Source of the DNA: Catajapyx aquilonaris
Taxonomy: Eukaryota
DNA length: 64,000 nt
NCBI GenBank assembly: GCA_000934665.2
Contig: KZ538006.1
Span: 62,001-126,000, forward strand
Reading direction: 5' to 3'
Program-made: the position numbers and the translations under genes
Part shown: positions 24,414 through 64,000 of the stretch, one piece after another
Layout of the letters: every line of letters starts with the position of its first letter
How positions within the stretch are numbered: position 1 is the first letter of the stretch
Notes under the pieces: generated by a model
The model's input: the letters and a program-made list of their open reading frames with translations, nothing else
The model's database searches: none
What the model was told of the DNA's origin: nothing

Positions 24414-24525
24414 CAGGGTGTATACTATCGACAACTGTTCTGGGGGACTTAACTCCACGGAGACCAGATCATTAGGGGGTATCAGTCGGTTCAAACATAT
24501 CCTCCTAGAACATGTGTACACCCTG
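24414..24525. mobile_element. Tc1/mariner-type MITE remnant
   Basis: TA-CAGGGTGTA...TACACCCTG-TA termini. Confidence 0.6.
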
Positions 24526-26563: not shown

Positions 26564-26705
26564 CAGGGTGGTGCACTTGCCCACACCCTCAGTTCCAGAG
26601 TGTATATAGGAACCCCCAACAATTTGTTGCAGCATGTAACATTCAGCTGGAGTAAACAATCAGCTTTTCTTCCCCAACCTTCCTGTTGGGCAATGCTCCA
26701 CCCTG
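26564..26705. mobile_element. Tc1/mariner-type MITE remnant
   Basis: TA-CAGGGTGGTGCACTTGCCCA ... TGGGCAATGCTCCACCCTG, ~20-bp imperfect TIRs. Confidence 0.6.
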
Positions 26706-34930: not shown

Positions 34931-35032
34931 AAGCTTGACTGTTTTAAAACATTGTTGTAGCTGCCGACTTCTTTTAATACTGTTCAGCTCGGCAGTGTTG
35001 TTGTTTTACGGATGAAAGATAATGCGGCCATT

Positions 35033-35038
35033 AATAAA
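35033..35038 (+). promoter_or_regulatory. Polyadenylation signal of LRR gene A
   Basis: AATAAA about 100 nt after the stop at 34930, followed by a GT/T-rich stretch (35069-35084). Confidence 0.55.
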
Positions 35039-35184
35039 AAGCTGCACAATATATTCCAACCACATTTACGTGTCCTTTTTTTTTAAAAAAAAAGTAGTGT
35101 CAAATTGTGTAGAAAAATGGTAACCCAATAGGAATGCATGACCCTTTCATAGTGCAGTCTTTCTGAAGTATCAAATGAAGCAGG

Positions 35185-39876: not shown

Positions 39877-39990
39877 TCTCTACATATAACGTATATAAAG
39901 CAGAAAGTTTGTTGGCATGTGGCAATATCACGGCTACCTAACCCACTTTCATACTACTAATAGTTCTGAAATTTGGCACACCGATGTAGA
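39877..39990 (+). mobile_element. Possible 5' fragment of a non-autonomous Helitron
   Basis: A|TCTCTACATATAACGTATATAAAGCAGAAAGTTTGTT...CTGAAATTTGGCACAC resembles the 5' ends of invertebrate non-autonomous Helitrons. No clean hairpin-CTAG|T 3' end was identified. Confidence 0.35.
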
Positions 39991-40824
39991 ATTAACACAT
40001 TGGAAACACCATGAGACAGCCTGGTTTTGATAATGACCTACACACGTTGGCTTTCATCTGAACGTACTGAACAATATAGGCATTTTTTTTACAAAAAAAT
40101 GCTAACATGCGACATTCATTTAGTGTAAATAATTGCGGATTACAGCCCAAACCGTGTGTATCATTAACAACGTTTCTTAATAAAGGAACAAATGCATGAT
40201 GACACCCAACCTGAGCATACAAATGGCTGGCATCAAAATAAGTGGCCTAAATTGATACCCGGTGGACGCGTGGCTTGCAACCGACACCAGTACCCATTCC
40301 TCACGCACAATCACAATGTTACAAACCGTAACAGGAGACCGGCTTGCATAAGAGGACCACACACACGTTGGGCCACGAGTCAGGTGCATTATTACACATG
40401 AAGAATGTTGATATAGGTTGCAGATGAGAGAGTCGCGGTCCCGGAACCGGTCTCGGTTTTCTTCTGAGTGTGTACCCCGATAAATCCACCGTTGCTGGTA
40501 ATACCCGCACGGTAGGATAATGGTTTGGGAGGATTACAAAGTGGTTGTAATGTCTCGGCGGAGGAGGAGACTAACAAATGGGCTGGTGGAGAATAGGCGA
40601 GGCGTGGACTCGCTTCACGTCACAAATTCTAGCCCACCTGACTGATAGACGTAAAGTGACGCTAATAACTCGTAATTTTGTGCCTAAACGCGGTCCCGCC
40701 CATGTAAATAAGTCCATGTTACGTTGCACACTACAGCACCGGTGTACAATTCTATTACCTTTCCTGGAGGTTGTCCTACTCGACCGACCGCGATCGGTGC
40801 GAGACCAGCACTTCAAGTACCCCC

Positions 40825-40908
<84 letters not shown>
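40825..40908 (+). repeat. (AAT)28 perfect microsatellite
   Basis: 84 bp of uninterrupted AAT repeats. Confidence 0.97.
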
Positions 40909-43221
40909 CTCCGTCAGCCTGTCCCAACTTTCCGGTTGGTTTGTCCTTGATTATGAATGCAAGCATATTAGTCGGCACCTGATATCCTGAAGTGCAAAGG
41001 TGATTATAATTATTTACAATGCAAATTAATGATTGACAAATTGCTTCTCATAGATGGGAACCGCCTGACGTCCCGGTTCCGTTATCGGCCGCGGCGTGAA
41101 AACTTCGGCCTTGCTGTGCAGAATTTTTTAATAGACATGATGGGCAGCAATTAAGAGAACACGCTAGAATTTTAACGAAGTCGTCCTGCTATTAGCACAT
41201 AGTCCTATGAGCCAATAGCATGACTATAATTTCGTTTGCAATATATTAAAATTTCTAACTATGCACCTACTCTCAAATATTTTTACATTTTCATCGTATA
41301 ATATCATTTCGAATCCCAGGTATGATTCAATTGAACAATTTGTTGTAAATTTGAGTTGAAATCAATCAATTGTGTTTAAAAATTACCATGAAACTTGAAT
41401 CACATTCTCTGTTCGGACCAAAAGCATTTGGGTGCTATTTCTCATAGATGAAGAGATTAATTTAGAGAGCAATTAGTGGGTTGGGTGTGTTCCCAAGTCC
41501 CCAGCTTGTTTCTGATCTCGTTTATAATTGCTGGTGGCCTCTGTGTGGGGCCTCCCTTGTCTCTTTCCCTGATGGTCCGAAGTTTCAATTGCGTCACCCC
41601 CGGAGGCAATCCAGATTCCGCGGCGACAGAAATGCCTTGGGGGGAGAGAAATGTATTGCGGTCGCCTCAACGTGAGGGACAAAGCTTGTTCAGTGTGCCT
41701 CCAAAAGACATGTGGATCTGGTGGTGAAAATGTCAGAACCGGCTTGTTCCATTGTTCTGCATGAGGAAAATACAACCGTTTGCACCCAGGATCAGACCTC
41801 CGGGACAGTGAGCAACGACCACCGAGAAAGGGTCGACAATTTCAGAGATCCCCTTTCCTGCTGGGGTCGACTGGGATCACCCCAAGAGAACCAGCTTGCC
41901 AACCCTGATTCAATTTAGTGCACGTGTGTTTGGCCAAAAATTATAGCCCTGTCGTTTGCCCGTGCACAAATCATCCTCCATATTTAATAAGCGCTTGCTA
42001 CCTTAAACAGCACTTGCTGATCCTTACTGCTGTTATCATCAAAATCCACATCCGGATACGATGATGAAGAGCTGCTTGCCAATTTATAACCCTGCTGGGT
42101 ATACCCACGGAGTGATCTTTGCCTCAGAGTGTACAGTAGGCACCCTTTAAAATGATGTGATCATTATGTTATGTCTTTTAAAGAACAGGGCACACTTTCA
42201 CCTTCGGTTCTGTGATAAGACACCACAACCTTTTTTTTAAAAAAAAAACGTCTCCACCTTCAATCTCTAGCAAGCAGCAAGTTCTGTAAAGAAATCCTCT
42301 AGGATTGGGTGGAGTACACCTGAGGTCCCCCCCAATCCAATCTCTTCTCTCTTTTTTTTTGTTCTGATTGGCATGCTGGAAGTGCTCTCCTTCTTTCCAG
42401 ATCACCAAAGCCTTGGGTTCCCCCCACAACCAGCCAGGTCCACCCCATCCATTAGAACACCCCCCGAAATTCCTGGAGACACTAGGACGTGTGACAAAGG
42501 CGCCAAGTTAAGAGGAGGGCTCGCCTATGATAAACCCCCCTGCTTAGTGTCACTGTTCTTTACACTGGGACGATACCAGCCCCTATTCAGGTGGGAGGTT
42601 GAGCCTCGTGTAGCGCGTTATTCGCTTGTCCCAAGTCGGAACAAGTCCATTCCAGTATCCTCCAGGTCTGATTTGTGTGTGGAAAAGCCTCGAGCACGTG
42701 GACAGTTCCACGCCCAGTGTTCGCAAAATAGTAACAAAACGCAGTGCACGGTGCAACATTGTCAATAAGCCAGATAACGAAATCCGGTGCTCGGCATGTT
42801 CGCAATTCGATTGACTGATTTGCAAAACCGCGGGAATGGAGGGGGGGGGACCCTAACCGCACAGTATTGTAAGTCAGGGCACGTTCCACAAATCCCACTA
42901 TTCCACAGCCCCCACGCAGTTTGGGTTTTTGATACACATACCTCGGGCACCCCGCTGTGTAATTATGTAGATCTATGCTCCGCCACGAAAGGCGTAGAAC
43001 GGAAACATACACTCCGCCTTCGTGATGCAATACTGAATTAATCACCCGCACCCAAAGTACCTGACACTCTCTCCCAAACCGCAAAGTCTGCTGAGACTAC
43101 CTAGGAAGCGTCGCTGAAATAACACATAAATCCGGGATGTTGCCATAATCGTCGACGCTAATTGTACTGGTCCGCAAACAGGACCTTTTCTCAAAACAGT
43201 ATGCGAAACGGACACAAGTAC

Positions 43222-43438
43222 CTTTGATGGCGGCGGTCACTTTGTCCAAAAAGTGGATGGTGATTGGCAGGAGGCTAGAATCCAGCCGGTAGGTGCCTTC
43301 GTGATGTTTGACCAAAAATATTCGGGTGTCCAGATGTCGAACTCGGGACGAGCAGAATGAAGGGTTGCCGAAACCTCCGACGACGACGATGGTGCCTTCC
43401 ACACTACTGTCGCCCTTTAGGACGCGCTTCACTCGAAC
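43222..43438 (-). CDS. AGRN: Agrin-like NtA proximal cassette, coding exon 2 (C-half of NtA)
   Basis: Acceptor CCAG|GTT at 43439/43438. Translation VRVKRVLKGDSSVEGTIVVVGGFGNPSFCSSRVRHLDTRIFLV...YRLDSSLLPITIHFLDKVTAAIK-G. Donor AAAG|GTACTT at 43222/43221 (217 nt, phase 1). Joins exon 1 in frame. Confidence 0.88.
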
Positions 43439-43440
43439 CT

Positions 43441-44197
43441 GGTCCCAGTTGAATCGGAGACATTTGTTCGTACATTACATTCCAGAAGTTATAGTCATTT
43501 ATGGGACATGTACGGAGAGTGAAAATGGGAACAATGCGCTAAACAGATCATGGAAGTTGCAATATTGTCGTTAGAAAGAGATTATTTTTTATTTCTTCTC
43601 ACTGATGTGTCAGCATGTTTTCTCAGCTGCTTTACGACTCACGAGCCCGTTTCTGACTTACAGAAAGTAGATTATAATAGTTATGGCACAACGGGAATCT
43701 CAGTCTAACACAAGTTGTCACACTCTGTACAAGTTTGCAACAACAATGGCGACTGAAAATATTGATGACTTGATTGATTAGAATCAAATCAAATTGCGGA
43801 AAATCTGAGATAACTTATGGTGAGCATAATTCAGAATCGGCAATTTTGCCATGATTTGCTTTGCCTTATCACTGACATTTGATTTGAAGTCGATGAGAAA
43901 TTTTATGACAGCTCAACTTTTGGAAATATGTTATTTTAAAGAGGTTACAATTTTAACCACGAATATTGAGTAAGCATCCTGTTGTATGTGCACAAATTGA
44001 TGAAAAACTATAATTATGTCAGATAATTACATATTTTTCTAATCTCTATCAGAAATTTTTGTCAAATTCAAATGTTTTATTAGGCTACAACATTTTATTA
44101 TTATCAAATCGAACAAATCGGTGCTGGACAATCGGACCATTTCCAAACTCTCCGACATTTCGGTCGCTCAACAATCATCTCCGAATCAACTGGGACC
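43441..44197. repeat. 20-bp inverted repeat (19/20 match) at the two ends of the proximal NtA intron
   Basis: 43441-43460 GGTCCCAGTTGAATCGGAGA versus the reverse complement of 44178-44197, GGTCCCAGTTGATTCGGAGA. Confidence 0.9.
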
Positions 44198-44211
44198 TCC
44201 AACATACGCAC

Positions 44212-44448
44212 CCTGACGTCATACTCCTTGGCCGGCTCCACATCATTGTTGTCGCGAACAGAAAGCAGCGGTGGTCCCGTGGGCTTCTCGACCCTGACCA
44301 CCTTCCCAGTGAAGACCAAATCGGCCCTATCCTCCCGATCCTCCAGAGACGCCTCCCGACAGTGCCGTCGAGGGCGCCTCCTCCGAGAAGCCCCCGTCAC
44401 CACCACCACAATCGCCAGAAGCACCAGAAGCACCTTTGTCGTCACCAT
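44212..44448 (-). CDS. AGRN: Agrin-like NtA proximal cassette, coding exon 1 (signal peptide + N-half of NtA)
   Basis: ATG at 44448 with an in-frame TAG just upstream. Translation MVTTKVLLVLLAIVVVVTGA-SRRRRPRRHCREASLEDREDRADLVFTGKVVRV...EYDVR. Donor AGG|GTGCGT at 44212/44211; 237 nt, phase 0. Confidence 0.88.
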
Positions 44449-44632
44449 CGTCGCCACCCACTTCTAACCGCGGATGGCCACCACCACTTCCATTCGCTTC
44501 TGGAAGAACTCTGGACAGAAACAGAAGCGTGCCGGCCGCCCTTTTTTTTCAACCCGAGGTTCTGGGATGCCCATTAGAGACCTCTGACGGCCACGGCCCA
44601 CCTCCATATGTGGAGAGGGTCTCTTAAGTATT

Positions 44633-44639
44633 TTTTATA
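44633..44639 (-). promoter_or_regulatory. Possible TATA box of the proximal NtA cassette
   Basis: TATAAAA on the minus strand about 190 nt upstream of ATG 44448, in otherwise GC-rich sequence. Motif match only. Confidence 0.25.
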
Positions 44640-47600
44640 CTCCTCCTCTCCCCTCTCTCCACCTCCCGACCAATTTTTTTTGGTAGGGTTCTCTCCGGGG
44701 AGGAAGCGAAAGAAGGTTGTGGTGATCTCCCAGCGTAGAAAGTTCTATTAAGGGACTTGGTCCGACCCACCCCTGAGTGTGGAATAAATCATTTTTGCTG
44801 GGTGTGTGTAATAATTATTGGGGTCTTTCTTGGACCGCTGATTGGGGATGGACATGTCACATGTGTCCGCTCTAATAAATCGGATGATGCAGAAAGTCGT
44901 GAGGAATTTGGCGCATAAGTAATTGCACAAAAAAAATTTGATTGAAGGCCCAATATATCGTGTTGGTGTTAGAAATAGGCCCAAGGTTTGGGTATGCAAA
45001 TGTTAAGCGAAAATAAACCGGCTGCACGTGTGGTATACATGGTAAAAATGGTCAGAGGCAACAATGGCAGAAAATCGTGCTTTTGTATAATTTTTTTCCA
45101 GGTGTTGTCTTAAACTAACAAAAGCACCGCTGTAAATGCTGTTTGTTATTGTAATACCTGACCTATTGTGGCAAAAATAGGCTGTCCTATTTACAATTTC
45201 GAATGAACACATTGTATGCAGAGTGGTGCCTAAGTCTAAAAAGAATTAATATTGTCCAACCTAAGGAACAAAATTCGTGGTTTCAAGAACTCTCACCTGC
45301 AGACTATTGTATGTCAAATATTATTTTTACATCATGTAGCATGTAAGTGGCTCATATGAGTAACCGGACGGTTTATTTACTTTCACATCATTCCCGTTAC
45401 AATCTTACGTGCGCAGCATCTTGCAAATCCTCGCGCCATCAAATTACCAATGATGATTTATCAGCCATTAACCCTCCCCGACAAGCAATTATTACAGGCC
45501 TCCAATCGATAGAGATCGCCATGACCGTTAATGACCGGCATATTCATTAATCCCGCGTAAATCAGCATCCACCAAGATCCTCAGATGTGTCCGGAGCAAC
45601 GCGTAAAAGTTTCTCGGCTGTCATGTACCACAATCGGCCATACATGGTCAGGCGTGCGACACCAGCATAAATCGGGGCCGAAATTCCGCATCCGGTAAAC
45701 ACCCTGTCCGGTGACTTTTTTTTTCCCCAGCCACATACAAAAAAGACCAGTTGAAAACCTCATCCTCCTCTTCATATGAGGATAATTCAAGACGGCATTG
45801 CCTCGATGGCTCCTCGCGCATGTCGAGCCCTGGGGCCTTCCAAATGGATGGACACGAGGTCTTGCTCTCGACTCAACTCGTCTGAATGTTTTCTCAACAA
45901 AGTTGTTGGGCAGCAATTTATGCCCTTTTAAGGACCACGACTGCTGCTATACCGGAGGGTGTAAAACCCGCGTAATGGGATGTGCCACAACTCGGACTGA
46001 ATTTTTCAGAGAAATGTATACGTTTTGTAACAGTATGTCAAACTGCCCCTGAAAAATACTGAACTTGAAAAAATATTGAAAAGTCATGCAGGTATAAAAT
46101 GGACGTGTTATGCAACAATGTTTCATCCCATAAAACTGTCAAAGGAACATATACCCAAAAGATCGTACGTAAATCAGTTAAAATCAATCTGGCGAAATAT
46201 GCATACTTCTGCCATAAATGGCCGAAAAAGGACACTGAATTAATTTCACAGGTTTTCAAAGCCCTTTTTCTCATGTGGGTTGACTTATTATTGCATAACA
46301 CCGTCCAAATAGTGCATGAATTGAATTGTTCCCATAATAATGTGCGCTATTCTTTCCACATTTTCCTTGCCCCACTGATATGCAAGAGCTTACGAATAAA
46401 AGCAATTAAAATTAACATTCAGCCGCCTGTCTCCCTGAAACGCGTGACTAATCCATCAGCTGCACCCAAACACACCACATTTTCACTACCATCTTCATTT
46501 AGATGCCAGCACATACACATTGTGTTCAGTCGCAAGAAGCTGGGTACAAGTGCTACCAAAAAAGTGTTGACTTTTGTTGGTCGTGAGGGCCGTGAAATAC
46601 GACAAAGAGATCCATTCAGCTCATCCCAATTAGCATTTCAATTGCTAGTGCTGAACTCGGGGACCTCGTCTCAATACATCAGAACACATCTTACTATATT
46701 AAACAGATGTCGCTACCCGAGTCTCGTGCTCGTGACAACAGCAATGCAAACAACACTCATTTGCTGATTCACCTTCACATAGTACGTGAATCTTCGGAAT
46801 GTCTATATACCTTGCATGCATAAAGCAGAATCGAGCTTATTTTAATTGCATCACGAAATGGCGTGAGGGTCAATAGTTGACTAGTGGTACGTACTGGGAT
46901 GAAGAACGTGTCTGGGACTGATCGCATCCACAGATTGATACCTCCATCACTCCTCAACACTCGAGGCGGGAACCAAAAAGCCAGAAATTAGCATGGAATC
47001 CATCCCCGATCCTCGTGACGGCGCCTGCCTCCTGGCTACTCCTGCTTTCAAACGTCACTTTCCCTGTCAAATTTGGTTGCCAGGGCCGAAGAATATACCT
47101 CAAGACGAGCCCAAGTCTGCACCGCCTCCTTCTCTCCCATTATACCCACCCATCGACGCCCATCCCAACCTCCTTTCCATCCCTGATTAATGGTGGAAAC
47201 CCTTTAGTTTTTTCCAAAATGCGCGCTTCTTCCCTTTCGGAAGAACAAAGGGAAGGAGAAAAAGTTGGCGCCAAATCCGTGGCTTCTACTTTCGGGTGCG
47301 GATCAGACGCGGGGAAACGCCTGTAGCTACCGCATGTATGAGCATGGGTGTGGGTGCTAAGACACGCGAGATAAAGGGACGCCACAGTACCCTGGGGTAC
47401 GGCACACCATCTCGATTAGTCTGCATTCCGATGCAATTGATGTTGAAGTATGGTTTGACAGCGAATTACATGTAGTCAAATAATATTCGGTACCCAATAT
47501 TTGGCCTTGAGAGTTTTCGTGCATGACCCGGACATACGTCCCTGGCCCATCCCATGTGTGGCCACATTCTGCACCCTCCAAACCTGGGCCCCGTGTGCTT

Positions 47601-49545
47601 GAAAAGTGGAAACACTAGTGGTTGAAAGCCCCACATTATTTCTTTCCCTAATAAGGACCACGACATGTTTACCCAAGACCTAATTACGGCACACGTGAAG
47701 CCGCGAAAATTACCCCTCTTGTACTTGTGCGAAAAACCATCTCCCACGGCTTGCCAAAATACGCCGGCGCCACAAACCTGAATCCTTGGGTGGCCTCGGC
47801 GCCAACACGAAACCAAAGATTCGGGAACAAATTGACCTGACTTTGTCTTGAAGATAGGAGACATCTGACTCCACGTCTTGTGGTGCATAATAAAATGAGG
47901 TGGGTGGCTACCTCTGAGTTATTATTTCAGGGTGGAACGACTTGACCTAAAGAGTAGCCCTGCTTAGATTCACAAGTGCAAATGGCGTCGAGATGACTTG
48001 AAGGTTGGTTCACTCCTTTTTTTTCGTTTCAAAGGAACGAGCTTTCTTCGCGCCTTGACAAATCGTTTGGAAATCCAATTACCATCTTGGTATGAAATCC
48101 ACGCATCCTTCACCTAAGATGGTTCGCGGAGGTTGGTTTGGAGTGAAAATGGATGTGGTCAGCTTTGATTTAATGAGCTTTCATCGACGTAGGGACAAAA
48201 AAAAAACCAGTTTGCCAAATGAAATGAACTCGTACGTGTAGTTGAGTAAAAACACTTCCGTACAGACAGGCTTTAGGGCATGCAAATTTCGATAAAAATT
48301 ATGGAAATGTCTCACCTGAATCGACGTAATTTAAAATTGCGGTGAAAATGTTACAAAAATTTTAATGTATTGATTTCGCACTGAAATGTCATGGCATCCA
48401 TCAATTTCGAAACAATCAGAAACTGTCACACTTTCTAAAATAATGTTTTAAAACCTGAACTTTACGGGTTTGCAAACTCCGGCCTGATTTTTTTTTCTAT
48501 ACTAAATCTAGACTCACTAAAAATTTACTGCCTGTAAATCAATTTGAGTGCACATTTCGAAGGCTTAATTTTCTCCTTATACTATTAACCTCCTATGCGG
48601 ATAAGCCTCAGTGAAACAAAATTAAATTGAAGCGTGTAATATGATTATTTACGATAATCATACTCAAAGGTTGTTACCAAACTCGCACCATGACCGTATA
48701 TAGATAACATGGGGCGGGTTAGGTGTATGAGGGGCAGATTTATCCATGGAGGTCTGCACGAAAAGGTCTGAAAGATCGAGCAGTTTGCAACCGGTTGCCA
48801 CACAGGAGCGGGATAAATATTCAGATTAGACCGTGTGACAACAACCTGTCACGAGAACTGGTGACCTCGCCCATAATTTTTTTTCCCCCAGAAGGCACTG
48901 CAAAACTGGGCGAAAACTTGTCCCTCTTCTTACATTGTACAGTTAGATATGACAACTTCATCATCAAAAGGTCCGTTGTTAAATTTAAATTCTAAAAAAA
49001 ATTGCCCACTTTGCATAAATTAGGACCTGAATTAGGCCAGATTGAAACTTATTTCTCTTGACAGTCTAAATAGCAATGTACTATTAAATTGTCAGGTGCA
49101 ATCACACGTCTTGACTTTTTGAGAATGTACCTGTTGGATCTGCACACCCGCAGCAGTTCAGGAAGTGACTTGAAACAATCGGAAATGATTGAAAGTACAC
49201 GAGGCAATTATCTGCACGTCGCGGTCCCCCCCCCCCCCAACCGCCTTGAGTCGGGTTTAAAGTGTATTATATGGGAGAAGACGGTGTCTCACTGGAGGGG
49301 TCATGAATCATTCAAAAGGGCAGGCTTGAAAAACCGAAAGAGCCGATACTCTGGTAGGACAACGCCTTCTGGCACTCCCATCCTTGTGCACTCAAAAGAA
49401 CTAGGTCAATGTCGACCATACCACCATAGTATAATAGATATACCAAGTGCTTACATTGTCTTGTGTGACGGCTTAAAATGCAGAACAACCAGAGTTACAT
49501 TTGACTGATTTCGTGATATGGAGATGGGAAATAGGAAAATGCAAA

Positions 49546-49580
49546 AATAAATAAATAAGTAAATAAATAAATAAATAAAT
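49546..49580 (+). repeat. (AAAT)n microsatellite
   Basis: About 8 units with one substitution. Confidence 0.85.
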
Positions 49581-49920
49581 ACAGGACATGGTTCGTGTAT
49601 ACAAAATACCTGACCAGTTCGGCCTTCACGAGGACCAACGAGTGACGACAGTGTGCAATCATTCAGTATCTCTCAACAAGAGCCTGATGGCTGTGTTAAG
49701 GTGCGTCTCCACAGGGGGGCCTGGAAATTCGCACGAGTTTAGCAAGAGGGTCATTCGTAGCGGCGCAACCTTGGGAGGAGTGTGGGCAGGAGCCACCCAA
49801 GCGGCCCAACTCATCACGGGCAACAGGTCCGGACTGGGAAGGATTTGGTAATTCCGGAGTCCACCCTAGCCCCAGGGCAGGAGGATGCCACCACGTGTTG
49901 TTGCCCGGGCCCCCATCCCC

Positions 49921-49946
49921 AGAAGAAGAAGAAGAAGAAGAAGAAG
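49921..49946 (+). repeat. (GAA)n microsatellite
   Basis: About 8 GAA units. Confidence 0.9.
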
Positions 49947-52900
49947 CTGGATGGAAGGTTATGGGAGCCTTTTTCTACCTAGAGAGAGAAGGAGGAGCAC
50001 CCTCCCTCCCTCTCCTCTTCAAAGGCAAAAGATTAATATGGGGTGGAGGAGCGGTCTTCATAATTAACTAGGAATCCTTCTCCTGAGCCCCTCATTGCCG
50101 GGGTCTCAGGCTGATTTGTCGAAGAGTTTTCTCGTTCGAGGCCGGGCTGTCGACTGCTCCTTTCTCCTTGTCAGTAATACTGATGATTGCTTCACTGATT
50201 GAATTCTTATTATTCACTTCCTGATCACGTAACATTGCTCCTTCAACTTTGGGGATCTATCTGGTGTACTGATCCGCTCTACTTGGTGTACCGGTAATTA
50301 TTTCTAAGCGAATTTTGGTAGTCATTAAGATCAACTGAGCAAAATTAAAGTAATGAACAAGAAGTGTCGGCTACATTCTATACATTAGGCTACAGATTTT
50401 ACTCTATCTTCAACTAAGATGCACATGTGGCATGTGACATAAATGGGCAAAATACGCTCTAACTCAACCGTACCGCTTGGCTATTATACAGTGTTTATGG
50501 ACACATAATTTCTAAATGCACCCCTTCGCAGTCAAACCTCGTGTCTTTTATATCCAAGGAAGCGGGTTTAACAAGCAATCATATTTGCGCTCTCCTGCCA
50601 TAAAAATAACGCGATGTAATTATTTTTCTAGCTTACCATCGTCGTATAGGGACGCGTGGTAGTTCTCTTCCTATGTATACGTAGGTAGTACATGGTTCGA
50701 TCACTGGTTGGACGGAAAATTCGTCGTTAATCTGACGAAAGGACGAATTCAACATTTTCCTAATTTTACAGGAGAGCCAAAAGAAACCTGCAAACCGCTA
50801 TACAAATAGGCTACTGTACATATCATATAGAATAGCCTTTTTTATTTTTCATTTGTCATAACCCTGACGCCACTTGCCCCACATGTTCCCCGTTTTGTCA
50901 GAATGCGACCCAACACTTTATGGGTTTATGGTGTTGGCAGAGCTACAATACACTATAATGTTGGCAAAATTGTTGAATTCTTCCTTTTGTCATATTAACG
51001 GCGATATTGTCTTGTATGGAAAGAAAAGTGAGCTGATAGTGTGGGAATTATTTACTTATTTAATATTTCCATGCAGAGATAACACCCTCGATGTGGAAGC
51101 GGATTTCCAAATTGTTTTGAATGATTAAAGCAACCTTGAAAGCAACGTGGAAGTGAAACTCAAGTGTCTTTAGTCACAATTATGTCACAATCAGTTAAAG
51201 CAATAAATTCAATTTCTAAATGGCGACACACCAGCGGCTGAAAATCCACGCCATAAAATAAATTAAATAAAAACGTCCCACACACCCTTCCAATTTGACG
51301 CAAACGTGGTTGTACAACTGTACCTGCACGACATTCAGTGACCATTACTCTTCGTTTAAGATTTCAAATAGAGCACATTCCCATAATTGGACTGTGTCCG
51401 GCTTAATTAGAAAAAAATGCGCACATCCCACGGCAGTCCAAAGAATTAAATTCCCACCCAAAACAACAGGTCACGTTCTGTGAATGATATATAGACCAAG
51501 ACCACTGTGATGCGTGTTGATCAAGTGCCCCCTAGCGCGATTAAAAAGCCCCACCGATGCCCACCACACCCTATCACCCTACAGCCCTTGTAGAAATCGA
51601 ACCATAACGTCCAGTGGGACGTAACTTCTTGGAAAAAAAGTACCAACCACCCTCACGCCTTTGGGGCCCCCCCGTCCGTTTCTAATCGCACTTGCCACCT
51701 CATCCTCTCAATTTGCCCACCTTGCCCTTTAGGCCTCATCACACGCGCAAAATGGCGAGGCGGCGTGGGGTACCACATCCACACAAAAAAATGCCTGAGA
51801 CCGGATTTTTTTTCTTCCAAGAAGTCTTGCGAGATCACACCCATCCTGGCGCCTGTGGAAAAGATGCATGTGAGTGTGTCTGTACGAGGGAAAAGTTGCC
51901 CCCGACGTGGGGTGGAGGCCGACGAGTTGGAGGAATTCTATCTGAAGGAAATTGTCCGGTCTGGTGAAAAATGGCGGGGTGTGGACAGGGCCCAAGTTTC
52001 TAAGAAAAAAGACAAACAACACCTTTAAAAAAAAAAGGATGGTGCCAATATTCGTGAGACGAGATATATCAAGGGCGGGATGTCATATTTTTAGAATCAG
52101 AAGACTTTGTTGACGTTATAAATAAGCGAGAACGACCTGCTTGGAGCGCTAACTAGCTCTGAATGCATAATATGTGGAGGAAAGCCACCAGATTAGCAAC
52201 GCTTAACGTAACTCAAGACATGAAACGCGTAGTAAACGCACTGGATTTGGGCTTGGCGCCAGTTCCCAAAGTGAATCTGGAAGAGGACCAAGCTCCAGTC
52301 AAAATATGTTATGAGATGTTTTGCATTCGTTGCACACACCCTCAAAAATCATTACGATAACACGTCCCTTAAGAATTTCACTTTATTACCGGAGGACAAT
52401 AACTATAAATATTTATTTTTAAAAATTCCCTAATATGCTCTCTGTTACGAAGAAATGAAAATAACTTTCCAGTAGGCGCAAATCGCACGAAATTAATTTC
52501 CTGAATTTTTCGCGACTTTGTCGGATTATTAACACAAACCCATAAGTCATAATGGTGATTCCCCCAGCCAGGTTTTTGTGTTTTTCCAGTTAACCCTACC
52601 CTTCGTCCCAGCATGATCTGTAGATAGATTTACATCTCCAGCGAAGACGAAAACATGCCGAGGGGTTTCCTTGTGACGATATGACGGAAAAGGCGCCGCA
52701 CTGGTTTCGTCTGGAAAGAAAATGGATTCCGCCCTTGTGCTTTTCTTCGCCCATTCGATTTCTCAGCAGGAGGGCCACGTGAGGGGATCTGAAGGTAAGG
52801 GTGTAGAAAAGTCCGTTGGTATGTACACCACCAAAAAAAATGTTAAAAACAAGATCATTGGAACACTTCAGTCGCATGTACTTTCCCTCCATTTCTAGTG

Positions 52901-55900
52901 GACCTGTGCCGGGTCAAGGTGACCAAACCGTACTTAAGAGTCTTCCTGGACACGCATGACATAATTTAGTAACACTCGAAGATTCAAATCGCCCCATCGG
53001 TCCCGTGTTTATGACGCCTCCCCGTTGCAGAATGCTGGTCAGAGACAAGGGCGGGGCACCCACAACTGGCCATCCACTCAACAGGATCCGCTGCCATTCC
53101 TGGTTAAACCTATTGCATGCTTGTCCAATACAAGAAGAAAACAGGTCCAAGAAACGTACGGTACGTGCGTTCACTCCTGTTGCACTTGTAAGCACCGGGT
53201 GGACATGTACATAGGTTATACACCTGCTATTACTGTGGCGACACAAATGGTTTCAGGCAGATCCGGAAACTGTCTGCTGTACAGCTGACAACACAGTTGA
53301 CCAGTTCACATCTGCTGCACAAAAAATGATGAACATTTGCATTTAATATCGGCAATGGTTCTGGCATCACTCTATTGCTGCTCACAAGAAGCGGCATTTT
53401 AAAAAAATTAACAGGACACCTTCCAGCAAATTCCTGCAAAAAAAAATGTGGAGTAATTAATTTGGCTCGTGTTGCAAGTAGGTCGCCAACGCACACGTGG
53501 AAATCACGCGTAGGTTTCGCGTCACTCCGGGCGACATTTTACAAAACCACCGCCTAATTGATAGGGCAAATTAGTCAGTGCTGCCACGCTAACGAGATAC
53601 TTGCTAATTAAAAATCCGAGGCTTGCAACAGCAAAAATCCAGGCAGCTGGAAAGTGCAATTTTCCACGCCTTATTATTATTGTGATAGTCCGATGGAGAC
53701 GTCCACTCTCCAAAAAGGCTGATGGACTTGGGCATAAATTGGGGAGGTAGACGAGCAGTAGTAAAAGTCGGTTTTATGGAGGTGGAATCCCATGGAGAAA
53801 ACCGTAGGATGATACGAAAGTCAGATAGGATAGTCCAGGAGCCAGTCTTCGAGGGGCCAGAGGTTAATGGGCACCAAGGTGGAAAGAAACGGCTGAGATT
53901 CACACTCAATTAGACTGCCTGTTTCGTAAAGTAGCTGGCAATGCAGCCCACCTGGAGGTGTCTAATCACGCTCGTAATACTAGTAGCAAATAGTGTCGTA
54001 AATAATTTTACAATCGACATATGAGAAGGGGTATACTCTAAGCAACATTCTTCGGCGTCTCCATTGATCCGTGTCTCTAGCATTGCTTAAAAAGTTCCTT
54101 TGGGAAACAAAAGATCCCCAACTGAGTGACCCCTAGAGAGAGGGAGGGGGACCTCCTCATTTGGATTCTGCCAGTCCAGCCCATCCGAAAAGGTTACTTC
54201 CTCCATTTCCACGTGGCCGCCGCCTGCCTTTAGAAGTGATGTTCCGATGGGGGTTTTGCAGTCCACCCTTCTAGAACACTGCCTTCCATTCCTTGCCGAT
54301 CACCACACCTCAATTTTTAGGAGCTACGCCCTCTTACCAATCGTTCCCCTTGATCTTTGACATGGGGTTTCCCGTTACGATGGAAATACCTTCAGGTTTG
54401 GGTACAGGGTACATCTGACTTATCAGCTAACAAGTTTCAGCTTCCAATAAAGTTGTAACATGCTGTCAGACTCCACCAAAATTTAGCAAGTTTTCATTAT
54501 ACAATTTCCTGCTATTCAAATAAAGTTGTCCCTATAGATGTGTCAACATTCACAGCCGCACGTGGTGGCTACAGGACAGCACACGCCTTAAATCATCGTA
54601 AGGAATGAGAAACCCCTTACTTTATTGCGTCTGAAAAAGTCTCGCCGAAGTCCCGATTGGGATCAATTTCCAAAAGAAACAGGCTTATCTAGCATCGTTC
54701 ATAAATCAGATCTCGCATATGCGTGTGTGTGTGTGCCATGCATGCCGCCCAACTATCAACCCCATGCCTTACCCAAGGAGGACAATATCATGAAACAAGG
54801 TCCTACCTCCGAGGCCTTTAAACCATATGGGGGGAAAAGGCGTCATTTTCTGTGCACTTCACCTACTATTCAGATGTAAATTCGAAGTGTGGGGTGGGCG
54901 CTCACTATGAGAGGAATAAAAGTATAGAGGAGGAAAAGGAGGAACAAGTTAGTCTCTCAGTTAGTAGGTCGAGCCTTGTTTCCTCACAATGCATGGGGGC
55001 AGCTTCTTAGAAGAAAAAAAGGAGTTTCTTTTTAGTGCTGCTCTGGCCTTCCTTGTTCTCTTTTCTCTCTCTCGTTATCTGCACCTGCTGGGAGCCCAAA
55101 CCCTGATTAACCTGCAACTGACACCGACCTGAGAAACATTATTGCCGGCGCCACCCTTCCCCGGGACCACACATGGATCACGCCAATGGCAGAAAAAAAT
55201 GCATGAATATGCAGAGATGGCTAATTGGGATCACGATTTGTTTTGATGTTCGTAAGTGTCAATGGAGATCCGTTGGCAGTGATAAGTGTGTTGCTTCCAG
55301 GACCAAGCGAAGATAAATCACTTTAAATTTTAACATTAAAATATGTTTCTGTAGTTAGAAAATGTGTGCAGTGTATAGTGATGCACAAATGTTAATTAAA
55401 TATTGAATCACTGACTGCATGCTTACATTTGACTGCAAAGTGTGCCCACATTCATTAGCCGAAATTGAATAATGCAATACGAGTATATTAGTAACGTACT
55501 ATCAATTTTGGCTACATAGTGTATAAGCAATACTCCCTGTTGTGTTCAATCGTTGGCCCCAAATGTTGCAACGTAACCAAAATAATATTTTGTGATGTAA
55601 CCTGACCTCCCATGATGCTCATATTGAGGTCAACCAAAACCCACCCTTTTACGTGATTGAAAAGCTTACTGATTAAGATGCAAAAGTCATGTTACACGTC
55701 TTACAGAAAAGGACATCAGCAAGTATAAAAAAAAATACTGGGCGTTAAATGTCGGTGCTGTTTCACCTCCCCCACACATTTACCAAGCATAATCGTTACT
55801 TTGAGGACATCCTTTTTTTCTAATGGAAAATAGTAAAAGTCCTGATCATTGGGTGGAGCCCCGTCTAACAAAGAGCGCTTTTATTTTTCACCGCAGCTTG

Positions 55901-58900
55901 GGACCATCCAGCAGACATTATACGAGTGGACACTCAACCTTTATGATGCGCCCCGAAAAATAAGCCCTGGACTTACGAGCTTGACATGGGTCCAATTTGG
56001 GTCGTTATGCAGACCGGCGCCTGACCATCTCCGGGGGCCTCATCGATTACTGTGATTCGGCTATTTCGAAAGTTGTTATACATCAAGGTTGTATTGTAAT
56101 TGCTCGTAATACCCGGAGGAATACTGATACTTTGGTGGTGTCCTTGGCACGTCAAGTTTCGGGCTTGCTTTTGGTCACATCCCAATAGAGAGTAAGGTGC
56201 ACCCCAAGGACGTTACGCGTTTTGGGCGGATTTAAGTGGGTGTCCCCCTCCATTCAATTACAAGATTCCATTACTGCCGTCAGTTACAATTATAGAATTG
56301 AAGCGTATAACCGACTATTTCAATTCGCGGGATGAACTGTATTGACCTCTCCTTGTGGGTAGGTATCGATATTCATATGGAGGAGTAATGACACACGGAT
56401 CGTGTAGGTGTTCCAGAACTTGGGCACCACCTCGCACCTGCATTAATTGAAAGGTGTTGTCAGTAAGCTTTTGGTACGGACAATAATACAGATAAGCTAT
56501 AAATATGTCACGCCATTTGAAGTTATGATTCAGATTTGGCCTCTAACCTATTGCAGTTATTGAGTTTCTCTTTTTTTTAAATAAGCAGCATCGTGACTCA
56601 TGATAATGCTTAATCGAATTTGCACCACGCTTTATCGGATACATTTGTCATTTTCGGATAACAAATTTTACATCCACTTCGTACAATTTAAGCATGGGTA
56701 ACATTTAAGCAATATTAACGCGAGTTGTCTGTCTACATGGCTTTTGCTGATAAGTTTTGGGACCCCCTTTTCTAAACAACAAGGACGCAATTGGAAGGGC
56801 AAGCCCAAATCTGTCTGTCTCACGTCAAAAGTGGAAGGATACCACCAGAAGCCCTCACGCATACACAATATACGCATACCTCATTCACATTCATACAGCA
56901 ACATCAATTTGGCCCCTGCTCGCCACGCCACTGCAAAAATTACACTAATATCACACATGACAGTTGCTTACATTATTTACATCTCCTCATTGATTGCTTT
57001 ACGAGCATACGCAGCAGGTTCAAAAAGTCATCCGGAAAATTTCAGTGGCATTGGCTGGTGGTCTTCACGGTAGGTAGAGGAGGAAAAAAAACTGTCCTGC
57101 AGGTAAGTAGTCAAGCTTGCTGGCAGGGAATAACCGAGGAAGAGGAACGACATCCGTGAAATATGCCCAGATGCAAGTCGAGGGTGGAGCATTTTCTTTT
57201 CCAAGTCCCATCCCATCCCGTGAAATATGGCGCAGTAAACATGAATATGGAGCAGCCATGCAAGCCCTGGCTTTCCCAGGACTCGTGTTACTGGGCGTGG
57301 ACAAAGTGTGCTAAGAAGAGGATACTTATTCTTCCCTGAGCACTGCAAACGGTCTTTCATGGTTAAAAACACTCTCGACACATTGCAAGGGATTATTCAG
57401 GTCCACATATAAATGCTCGCTGCTGCTGCTCAGCAGGCTCACACTCAATGAATGCATACTGGAAAACATATGGCACACTCGTGCCACGAATTCATTAAGC
57501 GAGTACCTTTAAAGGGGTCGTTCTTTCACACCATTTAAAATAATAAAGCAGGAACCAATCTTGCCAATATATCGGCGGAAAATAGCATGTGGTCAAAAAT
57601 ACCACTACATGTATGCACTCAATGTCCACCCTTAACATACGTTGAAAGTGGTTTGAATTTACGGGATGACAAAATTCATGTGACACATTCCCTAAGGAAA
57701 TAACCATCGCCTGAATTTATGAATCTTGGATGGGCCTGAGTTGGAGGCGTGCGTGTGTGTGTATTGCCCATCTAAGCATTCGGACTATTCCGGACCAAAA
57801 GCTAAAGCTACGTAGGGGACTATACATGTGGGGACAATGCTGGAGGAGCCCTGGAGGGATATTTATCGCCATCCACTCTGGTGGTCATTGTGGAGTCTCC
57901 CCCAATCCTTGGTCTTTTCCTGCGACGCCCATGCTGAACCAGCAGCTTTCCAAAAAAGAACTGAATTATGGACGTTATGTGACAACAGAAAACACCATCA
58001 ATATCTGCCCATGTTGTGGTAGAGGCCCCTCTGCAAAATAACCGCTTTGAAAATGGTTGACGGGCACAGAAGTGAAAGCAAGAGGTGTTTTCTTTGCTAG
58101 TTTTATGCTCGGGAAGACAACTTCTTGATTTATATTCGTGTTAAGCCGTGAAAATCACTTGTGTCTGGTTCAAAAGCGTGTAAAATATTTTGCAGGTTAC
58201 TATAATAAGTTATTGCTAAATTACAATTAGCAGGGTCCATATATTTCAAACAGAAGTGACCGGAAATTATGACAATTACATGGATATTATTGAGTCGGTA
58301 AAATTGTAGGTGCATGAAATTTCTCATTGTCGCATTGTCGCATTTATGTCCGACAAGTCAGGTGCGTCCAAAATACTTTCATAACATTATGGTGCACGTT
58401 GGTACAGCATAAATTCGCCTATCAAGACCACGCCCCCGTGGTACGAAAGAGCTACTAAATCCCTCTCGTTTGAAGCTTAAGTGTCCTGTTCACATAATCC
58501 CCATTTGCACGCTTCCAAGAATGGAAAAGGCCAACAACAGGTTGGGAATGAGCCAGTGCCACCGACTCTTCTTTTTTATCCTGCAGCTCAGTAGCAGCCA
58601 GCCACTCGGGTTTCTCTCGGAGAGTTTTGGACCACAACTGGTCCACAACCTGAATTTGTCACCGTCCTTATCTCGCTCGTTTGAGACTTGATATCTGTTC
58701 CACATATAAAGGCTCACGAGTGTAGATTCTCGCCTGATTGCTTGTTAGGTGCTGCTGTATTGTCGGCCGGTGACGTTTACTTTTGACATGTAATAACCGC
58801 TCCTCATAACTTCCGTAGGTTATATGTTCGTTAAGGACGAAGTTATTAGGAGCCGTCACCTAATGTTTTTGCAGTGCATTTAAAAGTCGCAGGTAACTGT

Positions 58901-61900
58901 TATTCGACATGACTTCGGTTGTGATAAAATGCTAATGCCAAGTATTAATGCCCAAACACTAGAGTGGAAGTACCTTTTCATTTCTCTCACCTGCAAGGTA
59001 TACATTGCATTAATATTGTTAAACTAGATGTTAGAACAGCTATGATGCACGTACCAGGTACAGGCTCAAATTTTTTTTCCTTTCTAGAAGACGGGAAAAA
59101 AGGGTGGGAATGAGAGAAAAATATGTTCGTCTGTCCTGCCCCCCGCCCTTCAGGAACCAGCTTTAAAAATGTGGAGAAGGGAAGGAAGACGAAGAAGACA
59201 CCACGAAAAAAAAGTTGTAATGTCTAATTTAACTGCGGCGTCTAATTTTAGACAGAGATTCCGTATTAAAAGGGGCGTTTCCACTTTCGGGTCTTCCGGG
59301 TTCCGGTTCGCTACTTAAAGAATTTCTGATCTCTTCTTGATTTAGCAACATCTATCGCCACAATTTTTTTTTGCGCTCAAGAATTTCTTACGGAAAAGTG
59401 CATTAGTTTAATTTAAGTGTCAAAAGTCAGATATACTGAAAAGGTTCAGTTTGTGACAAGTCAAAGCGTTTTGCATTAATACACGTCAGCAGCGTTAATT
59501 GAACCGGAGCGGTAAAAAAAACAGTTAATTTTAAACCAGGTTACACCAAAATGTCAGCTCCAGACCATTCCTGACATCGACCACCAACAGCGATACCCTT
59601 CTATATCCATGTAATTCAATCCCAAATCTAACAAAATCTATCGGGGAAGTTTAAGACCCAAAAAAAAGAATTATTGCTCTCCAAACCAAGCCGCCATTTT
59701 CTAAACTGAAACTTAATCAAGCAATTTCCACGGACGGTGGCAGTAATGACGCCCCACTACTGACTTACGACTTTTTCTTTCATGTGATTTACACCTTTTT
59801 GCCTACAGGGCTAGATCCCTATTTTTATCTGAGGGTGAATACATCATAACGAGATGCGACGCAAAGTGAGGGGAGGACCTAATAACCAAAAATTAGGCCG
59901 ATTTTCTGTCCGCATTCCGTATAGGGTGTAACAAAAATATATCGAGATGATAGGCAGGTGAAAAGCACCTGTTCTTCACATAACTGTTGATTTAGATCGA
60001 TTTCTGAAAGAAAAAAAAAACGACAAGTCCGACCCGCCCTTTTCTAATCCCCTCACCCGATTCTGCCCCTACCATGTTCTTCACACCTGGGTCACCCGTA
60101 CCCTATAGAACCCCACCCGCCGCCTCTTCTCCCCAGGCAAACAGGTCATACAAGGTGGGGTTACACCCAGCCTATATCATGACCCTAAAAAAATGGGTGA
60201 TTGATTTCTATGCTCACAAATTTATAGTCTCGATCAATATTGAATCACGCGCTTCACACATTTGGAGATACGAATGAAGCAAGGCTCGCATCTGAATCAG
60301 TCAACTCCACCCAAACACTGACCAACTAACAGTGTAACCAACGCCCACACAGGAATCTTCCCTGCGGCTGTGGATATACCTGCGGTTGTACACACACGCG
60401 AATCCGGACAGTAGATGCTTGAACAAATTGGGAAACTGTTTGGCACAGCAGTCTTAGACCCCGCCCTTACGCAACTGCTACCCTGGACAAATTACCTGGA
60501 ATCTCATTTGTCGCAATGTGACCACCTGGTTGCGTAAAAACGAAATAATAAATGAGACGGAGCAACCAGCCCTAATTGGATTATAGTGAGCTGCACATAT
60601 GTCATGGAAAGTTTATGCATATTTCGCCACCACTTCACAAATGATATCTGTCACATTAGCAGGCCTGCTAAAATGCTTCATAACGGGTCATTGGCAGTGT
60701 CCATAAAACACGGTCTGGTGACGTCATTTAAGCAGCTGTTGATGAATCTTAGGTCTCGTCTTCTTCCCCTCTTCCCCCAAGTTAAAGAATGGCTAAATCA
60801 TCAAGGGTCGAAGGGATGTCTGGGAGAAAAAGCCTCAAACTGGTATTGCCCAAACAGGGGACGCGTCAGGCAAAAGGAAGCTGCGAGGCGAATCGCAAGT
60901 AAATTGTGCTGCCAACCCAAGTTCACGTATAAAGATGATCTGTCACGCGAGGGGACACGTTCACAAAGGAGGGCTCCAGTTGGAAGAACTGGTCTTGTTT
61001 GGCCCCTTCTGCCGCACTTGTCAGGTTGGAGGGGGTGGCAAAATAATGATGGCAACCTGGGAGGGGATTGCCCTCTAATGACCCTGATTTGCCATCAAAT
61101 TATTGTCGCAGGAATCTGTCAAACATCATCGCTACTAACGAGCTACGTAAGTTTACTTATGAAAATTCTGCAACATTGTTTTCATGCTTCCCCTTGAACT
61201 TGAGCTTTGCACCACCCTGTACTTATATGCCTTCTAACTTGACGACAACTTAACAGCCGTTTTGTTTTTAAGCCAGGAATAGTGACGGTTGTTTTATGGC
61301 GCCCTCCCACTGGGTTGGGCATGTGATACACATACTTCGGAAATAAATCACTTTTTAGCTGATTTGCGAGCCCACCAATAGAGCCCCATAAAACCTTGAA
61401 ATTTCGCCACCCAAAAAGTGCTGATGATTGGTAAGCATTAAAATGAGCCAAAGAAATCTGGCTAACACGGCCGACTTCTCTTTTACGACGCTTCTGGGGT
61501 GAAGGCAAATGACTCGAGGTGACACTCGTAACAAGCGCCAATATTGTTTGCATAGAAATTTTAAAAAAAGAAAGAAAGGACTCTCACGTGTGGAGGGGGT
61601 AATGGACTTGTAAAATTTTACACGCCAAAATAGCTGTGCGCTACTTCACCACTATACTCAGGGTAGTTAGTTAATGACATTTATTTTTTGCATGCACAAA
61701 TTTCCTTGTATTGGGCAGTGCACCTTTTCTGGATATGGTGACATAATTGTGTTGTGGGAAGCAGAGGAGTCAATAAATTAAGCAATGCCTTCAGGGCTAT
61801 CGGCCGAGTTGTAAACCGCACCCTTTGTCACCTACGTCACAATTTTCGATTGTAATTTATACCTGCTGAGCCGTAATTTTATGAGGACAAGCAATGACCT

Positions 61901-62263
61901 AGCCTATACCATACCTGGATAATTAATGAGATTTCGCGCAGTACCGTTCTAGCAATTTGCCACCTTATACAGTTCATTCTGGATATAACATACAAATGTT
62001 TGTTATAGACGAATCGCCACTTTTGCATAAAGTTTTCTGCCTGCCGGTTGCAAATAATGCACAATACTGGATACTGATTTATGACAATATCCACAAAAAT
62101 TCAAAATCAGCCTCATGTGCAAAACTTGCGACTAGTGTGAGGGTTGACCTCCTCAGGTCATCCCTTTGACCCCGAAAGGTCACTCAGGGTCGTTTATATC
62201 CGGAGTCTACTGTACATGTATAATTCATTTTTATGTTCTACTTAATTCGGTGCAATACTTTAC

Positions 62264-62774
62264 CTCTGACTGCGGCCATAACCTTATCCAAATTCCGAAT
62301 GGTAATGGGCACAAGACTTGAGTTGAGGTAGTAGTGACCTTTCCTGTCGGGGTCAGCCACCACCAGGAAAATGCGCGTGTCCCGATTGCGAACCCGTCCC
62401 AGACAGAACTTTGGGTTACCCACGCCTCGGACAGTCACCCGTTGACCCTCTGTCAATCCGTCACTAGAATGGCGACGACCTTTGAGGACTCGCTTGACCT
62501 GCACAACCACCGCTGGAGGGTCATCAGGTCTGGACAGCACGTAGTGGTCCTCTAGTACCTCGTTGGTCAGCAGGGAAGACACTATTTTCTCCACTTTAGC
62601 CGTGAATATGTGCGTCGCCCTTTGTTCCTTCTCCTTCATGGTGCCCTCTAGACAAGGGTGGTCACGCACTGAGCACACGCACGTGCGAAACATGACCAGG
62701 AACACTAAGACTGTTAAGGCCAGCATTGCACAGCACAAATCTCGCACCCACTCGGAACCACTAAGAAGCAGCAT
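62264..62774 (-). CDS. AGRN: Agrin-like signal peptide + NtA (laminin-binding) domain, distal cassette; single coding exon ending in a phase-1 donor
   Basis: ORF 62238-62774: hydrophobic leader (MLALTVLVFLVMFRTCVC), then CLEGTMKEKEQRATHIFTAKVEKI...VQVKRVLKG...VRGVGNPKFC..RVRNRDTRIFLV...LNSSLVPITIRNLDKV. This matches the agrin NtA pattern as I recall it (C-ERALE-REEEANVVLTGTVE..VRVWRYLKG..GFGDPLIC..DTRIFFV..LNSSLMRITLRNL). Donor AGAG|GTAAAG after 62264 (511 nt, phase 1). The symbol is by domain recognition; downstream agrin exons are not in the window. Confidence 0.88.
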
Positions 62775-64000
62775 CTAGCTTCCTAAGTTTTTAACCTAGC
62801 TGGCACAAGAGGCAAAAACCACGCAAATGAGTAAAAAATCCTGCAAAAACGTTCCTTCTGGAGGAAAAAAACAACCAGTGGGTTCTGAGGGAGGAAACAG
62901 GAGACATCACTTTTGAGGATCGGAGGTATTAACGGCATCTCGTATTTTTAATACGTTGGCTTCCAGAAAAACCAGCAGGGTTAAAAAATCTGACAAACAC
63001 ATATAGAAATTTTTGGTCCTCTGTTTGCCTCTACCAGGAAAGGGTTGGGGGCGATGTGATCAAGCAGTTTTTTGGTGTATTCTTTTTCTGGATATATCAA
63101 GTCGCTAAATATGACTGGCATTTGGTGGAAAAAATTTAGAGAGGGAGATGCGACGACAATACGCGTGGCCTGTGGGGGTTATGGTTTTTTCATCCTGATT
63201 ATATTTGCAGAGACATGCCAAGCAGTTGTTTCAGAATAACTCACTATTCCCGTGTAAAATCCTGAAACTAAAATGATATAAGAAGACTTTTATGGTCGAT
63301 TGTGGAAAAAAAATGCATGTGTGAATACAAGGCAAAATTTAGGTCACAGTTAGAAACCAGTAGCAACATTGAAACGCCTAGAAAGTTAATACCCAACACT
63401 TTAGTCCCAAAATTTCTAACAGTACTCCCCCGTTATTATCCGAGAGGCTGAGGCACTACTGTGCAACATCCTGGGTAATTAGCGGTCAGTCAGTGGCGTT
63501 AAACAATCCGGTAAACAAAACCTGGAAACTAATTGCTGGCGGTTTTCTTCCCCCCTCCAATCATTTTGTTGTGCAATGGCCGAACGCAGAAGAGGTATTT
63601 TTCCCACGGAAAAGGGCTAGTGTGACACGCGGCAACCTCAGCATTGTGTCAGTTCCTCCGCCCGTGAAAATGTTAATTACTACCTTACGTTGACTTGATT
63701 AACCCGACCCCTTTGGCTTCCATCAGAGGGTCCACCTCTTTTTGCGCCCACTTTTGGCCAACAAGAGGCATTCACATGTCGCCTACGAGAGGGCGCGGTT
63801 GCCATGCCAAATGACGGGTAAATCTCGGGAATTTAACTAACGCCCATACAATCATGATGTATGAAACTGCATAAAAGGAAAGACAGCATGTGACACGGTT
63901 GTCCTTAGAATCAAAGTGAGACATTGCTGGAATGAACGCACCTTTTGCTGCTGCGTTTGTCTTTCCCAAGATGGTGACTGACAACCGCAGCGGAGGCAGC

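Follow-up and report, generated by a model that had tools for sequence, protein, structure and literature searches.

Two NtA units on one strand

A window of 64,000 nucleotides from Catajapyx aquilonaris (assembly GCA_000934665.2, contig KZ538006.1, positions 62,001 to 126,000 of the forward strand) was analyzed, position 1 being the first letter of this stretch. On its minus strand, the window carries two units coding for the NtA domain, which determines where agrin is fixed in the basement membrane. The unit at 62774-62264 is called distal and the unit at 44448-43222 proximal, the distance between the two ATG codons being 18,326 nt. Their features are the following.

62775..62777, minus strand: in-frame TAG immediately 5' of the distal ATG
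62264..62774, minus strand: distal cassette, a hydrophobic leader and the complete NtA in a single coding exon (170 codons and 1 base, phase 1 end)
62262..62263, minus strand: distal donor GT (GAG/GTAAAG); the exon ends at 62264, one base into the Gly codon
44212..44448, minus strand: proximal coding exon 1, leader and first part of NtA (79 codons, phase 0 end, AGG/GTGCGT)
43439..44211, minus strand: intron within the proximal NtA (GTGCGT...CCAG; 773 nt, phase 0)
43222..43438, minus strand: proximal coding exon 2, remainder of NtA, starting at 43438 (..ccag/GTT) (72 codons and 1 base, phase 1 end)
43220..43221, minus strand: proximal terminal donor GT (AAG/GTACTT); the exon ends AAA G/GT at 43222

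The distal open reading frame (ORF) opens at the ATG at 62774 and runs through the domain without any intron. When compared with the Pfam NtA family (PF03146, curated cut-off of 25.1 bits), it gave a score of 53.6 bits (E = 2.5e-14) over profile positions 1-115 of 115, and the motifs D-T-R-I-F and L-N-S-S-L as well as both conserved cysteines are present. For this unit only, an AlphaFold2 model was obtained, with a predicted local distance difference test score (pLDDT) of 82.5. The best four Foldseek matches of the model were the chicken NtA structures 1pxu, 1jb3, 3i70 and 1jc7, with template modelling (TM) scores of 0.73-0.75 (target-normalised), and other NTR modules were ranked below them. 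In the PDB, the only meaningful sequence matches were the solved chicken NtA structures and one full-length agrin. The distal unit is predicted by this model to adopt the NtA/NTR OB-type fold with flanking helices.

The proximal unit opens at the ATG at 44448, which an in-frame stop precedes by 5 codons. Its exon 2 (last 72 codons) was recognized by the Pfam NtA profile at positions 38-113 (E = 4e-12, 46.4 bits). Exon 1 by itself gave no Pfam NtA match at E of 1 or below and only a weak match to the distal unit (phmmer E = 0.0019). Once joined, the two exons were aligned to the NtA family without indel across the junction, the conserved Cys, Arg and Thr columns being kept in exon 1. Both conserved cysteines and D-T-R-I-F are found in the proximal unit, and the position of L-N-S-S-L reads L-D-S-S-L. 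Both units are bona fide NtA domains. The original prediction, made from the sequence, had announced two complete units of signal peptide and NtA; both are indeed present, but the proximal one is not a single block, its intron having been missed.

Both units end at the same aligned Gly codon, in phase 1, directly before a GT (62264 and 43222). Among the GT sites of the minus strand of the window, the distal donor was placed at the 97.5th percentile and the proximal terminal donor at the 93.3rd, with an approximate position weight matrix which gives a rough guide only. The acceptor of proximal exon 2 is pyrimidine-poor (7 pyrimidines out of 15). The arrangement of the two NtA units is far beyond chance.

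Divergence and constraint of the two copies

The distal and proximal proteins are 45% identical over 130 aligned columns (43-46% by BLASTP), and no DNA similarity was detected between the regions of the two units, in or around the exons. An assembly or haplotype duplicate is excluded by this protein divergence and by the disappearance of the DNA similarity, which also indicates that the duplication is old. These results are in agreement with the initial description of two strongly diverged units about 18 kb apart on one strand, each with its own ATG and both closed by the same codon in the same phase.

For 115 aligned codon pairs, the proportion of synonymous differences (pS) was 0.78, which is saturated, and that of nonsynonymous differences (pN) was 0.34. 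The GC content at third codon positions (GC3) was 0.61 and 0.68 in the two units, well above the value of 0.444 for the window. Conservation was then assessed on 21 columns kept by no fewer than 11 of a set of 12 NtA sequences, a set which includes the distal unit. The distal unit retained 20 of these 21 columns and the proximal unit 19, the changes of the latter affecting two columns invariant in 12/12 relatives: an N to D replacement in the N-S-S sequon and an N to F replacement. The reading frames, the leaders and the splice dinucleotides are all intact in both copies.

These two changes, together with the weaker terminal donor and the pyrimidine-poor internal acceptor of the proximal unit, are what could be expected if one unit were a leftover, no longer in use, of an old exon duplication, the other alone being spliced into the agrin mRNA. 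We regard this as very improbable, since a neutral copy of such age should show stops or frameshifts, whereas frames, splice dinucleotides and leaders have been preserved in both copies despite saturated synonymous sites; moreover, pN is less than half of pS and the GC3 of both copies stands well above the GC content of the window. As long neutral drift would have broken one copy and both are intact, both were taken as working coding sequence. The codon comparison points to purifying selection on both copies, neither of which seems to have drifted neutrally, and both units look like live coding sequence derived from an ancient duplication.

Relatives and position of the proximal intron

The distal unit was used as query in a HMMER search of a representative library of 1.84 billion proteins. 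At E of 0.001 or below, 151 matches were recovered, the best one being 43% identical. Nearly all of them are short ORF calls in which a leader and an NtA exon run into the intron after ..[RK]-G. The named matches come from a millipede, spiders, a mite, a shrimp, a cockroach, a priapulid and oysters. No match was obtained when the distal unit was searched against longer proteins.

A tree was built with 117 of 154 rows, 37 rows covering only part of the domain being excluded. Both window units were grouped with a cockroach protein and a clade of 8 rows; this group is weak (Shimodaira-Hasegawa-like approximate likelihood ratio test, SH-aLRT, of 83), and the support is too weak to date the duplication.

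Among the 37 partial rows, 24 are vertebrate-type ORFs beginning just ahead of a V-R-V-W-R-Y motif. Of these 24, 21 have a K or a Q immediately ahead of the motif, after a pyrimidine-type translation. Since either residue would result from translation of an acceptor with AAG or CAG in frame, we infer from these ORF calls that a vertebrate exon starts there. The V of the motif is residue 81 of vertebrate agrin and is aligned to 43438, the first base of proximal exon 2. The proximal 773-nt intron thus appears to agree, in position and phase, with the point at which vertebrate agrin begins its second NtA exon. The distal cassette has no intron at this site, and 111 of the 117 rows covering both domain halves are ORF calls of 320 aa or less which are apparently uninterrupted there. 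The proximal intron is a candidate for an ancient intron which would have been lost repeatedly elsewhere.

Search for further agrin exons in the window

When both units were compared by phmmer with the 1369 six-frame ORFs of at least 30 aa, only two NtA copies, in three exons, were found. No further match at E below 1 was given by tblastn of oyster agrin (1490 aa) and vertebrate agrin (2050 aa) against the window, and no further exon was accepted after tblastn with the first 400 residues of eight oyster agrin isoforms. In this last search, a match of the minus strand at 8398-8511 to the oyster follistatin-type head (E = 0.23-0.38) was rejected, the ORF having neither a Pfam match nor the cysteine pattern. 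A Pfam scan of 119 ORFs of at least 90 aa and of 47 shorter Cys-rich ORFs revealed no Kazal, follistatin, EGF, SEA or LamG exon. The absence of any other agrin exon between the units and in the next 43 kb, as predicted, was therefore borne out by the phmmer, tblastn and Pfam scans. Two long regions are delimited in this way.

44449..62261, minus strand: spacer between the cassettes, in which neither an agrin exon nor an exon of any other Pfam family is recognisable
1..43219, minus strand: presumed long intron 3' of the proximal cassette, without agrin exon and with nested plus-strand ORFs related to leucine-rich repeats (LRR)

In the spacer, ORFs of 120-232 aa were rejected as genes because they resemble the translation of non-coding DNA and have no Pfam match. 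A complete second agrin gene between the cassettes is ruled out by the negative tblastn results: as both the spacer and the next 43 kb are devoid of agrin exons, the distal unit is not the start of such a gene packed between the two.

Proposed alternative 5' heads of one agrin gene

The organization of the locus is best accounted for if one agrin gene has both units as its alternative 5' heads, a reading which we put forward tentatively and whose probability we place just short of even. The follistatin/Kazal and later agrin exons would lie beyond coordinate 1, and each head would supply a leader peptide and an NtA laminin-binding domain. Since the Gly codon and the phase (1) of the final donor are common to both heads, a single first constant exon could accept either of them. 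The products would be secreted agrin isoforms whose sole difference is the module responsible for anchorage to the laminin coiled coil. The choice of the head could be made by separate promoters, or by mutually exclusive splicing out of a leader exon situated upstream and common to both. The joining to a common exon, the mechanism of choice and any difference in laminin binding are all inferred.

With regard to laminin binding, the proximal head lacks the conserved N-x-S sequon, and this loss is a candidate for such a difference. The putative laminin-binding residues in the C-terminal helix of chick NtA, Leu117 and Val124, correspond by hand count to Leu and Val in the distal unit and to Leu and Ile in the proximal unit.

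The regions upstream of both ATG codons were inspected for promoter and splicing signals, which are consensus matches only. Acceptor-like sites, defined as a pyrimidine tract followed by YAG, occur at a background of 1.09 per kb on the minus strand (70 in the window).

62799..62884, minus strand: three acceptor-like sites with exon starts at 62884, 62857 and 62799, 25-110 nt upstream of the distal ATG
44510..44524, minus strand: acceptor-like site with exon start at 44510, 62 nt upstream of the proximal ATG
44634..44639, minus strand: TATAAA, 191 nt upstream of the proximal ATG

As acceptor-like sites precede both ATG codons, non-coding exons may lie ahead of the coding exons, and a shared leader exon is possible. 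Mutually exclusive splicing from such a non-coding exon, in place of two promoters, would explain the presence of these sites (three distal and one proximal) above the background frequency, as well as the failure to find a TATA-like motif in the 800 nt upstream of the distal ATG. The sites are nevertheless mere consensus matches, a TATAAA is present ahead of the proximal ATG, and the passages of Burgess et al. (2000, PMC2189804) and Yue et al. (2016, PMC4835542) dealing with vertebrate agrin and sDscam, respectively, describe separate promoters. This variant is counted within the probability given above to alternative heads and, taken alone, is improbable.

A transcript starting at the distal head would encounter the acceptor of proximal exon 2 ahead of any constant exon. 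The joining of the distal donor to this acceptor is out of frame and leads to a stop after 11 codons. As this joining is unproductive, productive distal transcripts must skip proximal exon 2, and under the reading of alternative heads they would do so. This requirement had been overlooked when interchangeable heads were first proposed, on the basis of strand, phase and ATG codons; these, together with the constraint on both copies and the empty spacer, do fit the proposal. The required skipping is not fatal to this reading, if one judges by the multi-exon cassettes of sDscam, which work, and by the pyrimidine-poor acceptor of proximal exon 2.

Comparison with known systems

To our knowledge, the N-terminal choice in agrin has so far been one between NtA and no NtA, that is to say between a secreted and a transmembrane form. 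The first 170 residues of 31 NCBI RefSeq agrin models of the oysters Crassostrea virginica, Magallana gigas and M. angulata were compared, and the following heads were distinguished.

21/31 models: NtA head, always the same one within a species
4/31 models: signal peptide and follistatin-like head
3/31 models: extended N-terminus containing a single hydrophobic stretch, interpreted by eye as a type II membrane anchor
1/31 models: short signal-peptide head
2/31 models: start inside the linker

In the NtA head (..R-G) and in the short head, a Gly stands directly before an identical continuation, and this boundary matches the phase-1 Gly end of both window cassettes. The swapping of heads at this boundary thus has an invertebrate precedent, at least as computed gene models of oysters. 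Oyster agrin resembles the window units in this Gly boundary and differs from them by its single NtA head, the comparison relying on computed models only. In three of the oyster models (P0203, P0204 and P0213), a long cytoplasmic-looking stretch and one hydrophobic segment are joined to the first follistatin-like domain. Judged by eye, this membrane-type head resembles the transmembrane (SN) head of vertebrate agrin and could be its counterpart, in which case the existence of both secreted and membrane forms of agrin would predate vertebrates.

In clustered protocadherins (Pcdh) and in UGT1A, variable single first exons without upstream acceptor form large arrays and are spliced to shared constant exons. 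Here, in contrast, an intron divides one of the units, and acceptor-like sites are present upstream of each.

For mouse agrin, the relevant passages of Burgess et al. (2000, PMC2189804) report a multi-exon LN head, which contains NtA, and a single-exon SN head, produced from different promoters and joined to common exons. The likeness lies in one gene with alternative 5' heads, in a multi-exon NtA head and in an intron before V-R-V-x-R which is apparently common to the proximal cassette. The difference is that the second vertebrate head is short, is not an NtA and gives a transmembrane form, whereas the second head described here is a complete and diverged NtA.

The chelicerate sDscam 5' cassettes, according to the sections of Yue et al. 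(2016, PMC4835542) devoted to them, are built of two or four exons, and their use depends on alternative promoters together with alternative splicing; the in-frame stop just upstream of each ATG was taken by these authors as a marker. In the same sections, the sDscam cassettes are, like the units of the window, tandem and paralogous, with their own ATG and leader and an upstream in-frame stop, and they are spliced to a common constant exon. They differ in being numerous, in coding for Ig domains and in having experimentally demonstrated promoters and splicing, whereas the two cassettes of the window are known from DNA alone. The term "protocadherin/sDscam-style", under which the locus had been presented, is overstated for a locus in which no more than two cassettes can be seen, and "duplicated alternative 5' head" describes it more fairly. 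In the literature covered by our search, from which most subscription journals were absent, no paper describing duplicated NtA heads was found.

A possible separate NtA-only gene

Several observations weigh against alternative heads, besides the need to skip proximal exon 2. Neither cassette is physically tied to an agrin body within the 64-kb window. The oyster models, with at least four N-termini on one constant body, include only one NtA among these. Among metagenome contigs, one related locus of 13.4 kb was found, with one single-exon NtA and no other agrin exon; it says little on tandem cassettes. No second case of duplicated NtA heads was seen among the oyster models and this metagenome locus. 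The lack of a TATA-like motif ahead of the distal unit, where three acceptor-like sites are present instead, raises the possibility that this unit is not a genuine first exon driven by a promoter of its own. Past the distal donor, the unspliced frame reaches a stop after 8 codons, and an AATAAA is located at 61685-61680 on the minus strand, about 580 nt farther along, as would fit a short unspliced mRNA. Finally, two RefSeq models illustrate that the annotation of an NtA exon as a short product standing alone does occur: XP_037796393.1 of the shrimp (158 aa), in which NtA is followed by a short unrelated tail, and XP_069690304.1 of the cockroach (223 aa), a divergent NtA which misses several invariant residues kept by both window units.

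From these last observations, one unit, most likely the distal one, could be a separate small gene for a secreted NtA-only protein, the proximal unit alone starting agrin. Its mRNA would be either unspliced and end at the read-through stop, or spliced to a short unrecognised terminal exon, and the protein could bind laminin without the agrin body, for instance as a competitor or modulator of agrin anchorage. Such a gene would dispense distal transcripts from skipping proximal exon 2, and the constraint on the distal unit is that of a working gene. The shrimp and cockroach models resemble the window units in having an NtA exon without agrin body; they are unverified predictions and may be annotation fragments of long genes. 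Furthermore, the distal unit ends exactly at the ancestral exon boundary, where sequence conservation also ends, with a donor ranked high by the rough matrix, and a single AATAAA in 1.8 kb is near the chance expectation. We consider a separate NtA-only gene unlikely, although it is the chief rival of alternative heads.

Other features of the window

Inside the presumed agrin intron, the region 32364-36880 contains two long plus-strand ORFs, at 32888-34927 (680 codons) and 35375-36880 (502 codons). Both gave only sub-threshold Pfam LRR matches and are weakly similar to one another. For the 680-aa ORF, a word-based homology search found no match, and a feature search with the nested LRR ORF led to F-box/LRR-like clusters, arthropod for the most part. 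With the named NtA matches, these clusters point to a probable arthropod source of the DNA, as a lead only. The two ORFs are probably nested LRR genes or a lineage-specific pair of repeat proteins.

A perfect (AAT)28 microsatellite occupies 40825-40908. Apart from an inverted repeat pair at 29037-29172 and 29305-29443 (78% identity over about 140 nt) and a direct repeat dispersed at 7243-7326 and 14250-14333 (89%, 84 nt), the window has few internal repeats. A run of 23 N at 13721-13743 and single N at 13291 and 21982 correspond to small assembly gaps or ambiguities. The window extends just 1.2 kb upstream of the distal unit, and further heads may lie upstream of it.

Significance

The intron position apparently common with vertebrates and the oyster transmembrane-type head suggest that the alternative-head design of agrin is old in animals. 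With a probability that we estimate as somewhat below even, interchangeable laminin-binding heads have evolved for agrin in this lineage: the choice of a promoter or of a splice site would place one or the other of two anciently diverged NtA modules, one of them deprived of the conserved glycosylation sequon, on a common agrin body, and different cells could then fix this proteoglycan to different laminins or basement membranes. If the distal unit were instead a stand-alone NtA protein, it would represent a new kind of soluble laminin-binding factor. If the two units are alternative heads of one gene, the locus combines two known things, the alternative N-termini of agrin and the genes with tandem 5' cassettes, and the principle of variable 5' cassettes would be extended from cell-recognition receptors (Pcdh, sDscam) to an organiser of the extracellular matrix. 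The two heads would then offer a natural pair of NtA variants for the mapping of laminin specificity, and matrix anchorage itself would be diversified by the choice of the 5' exon.

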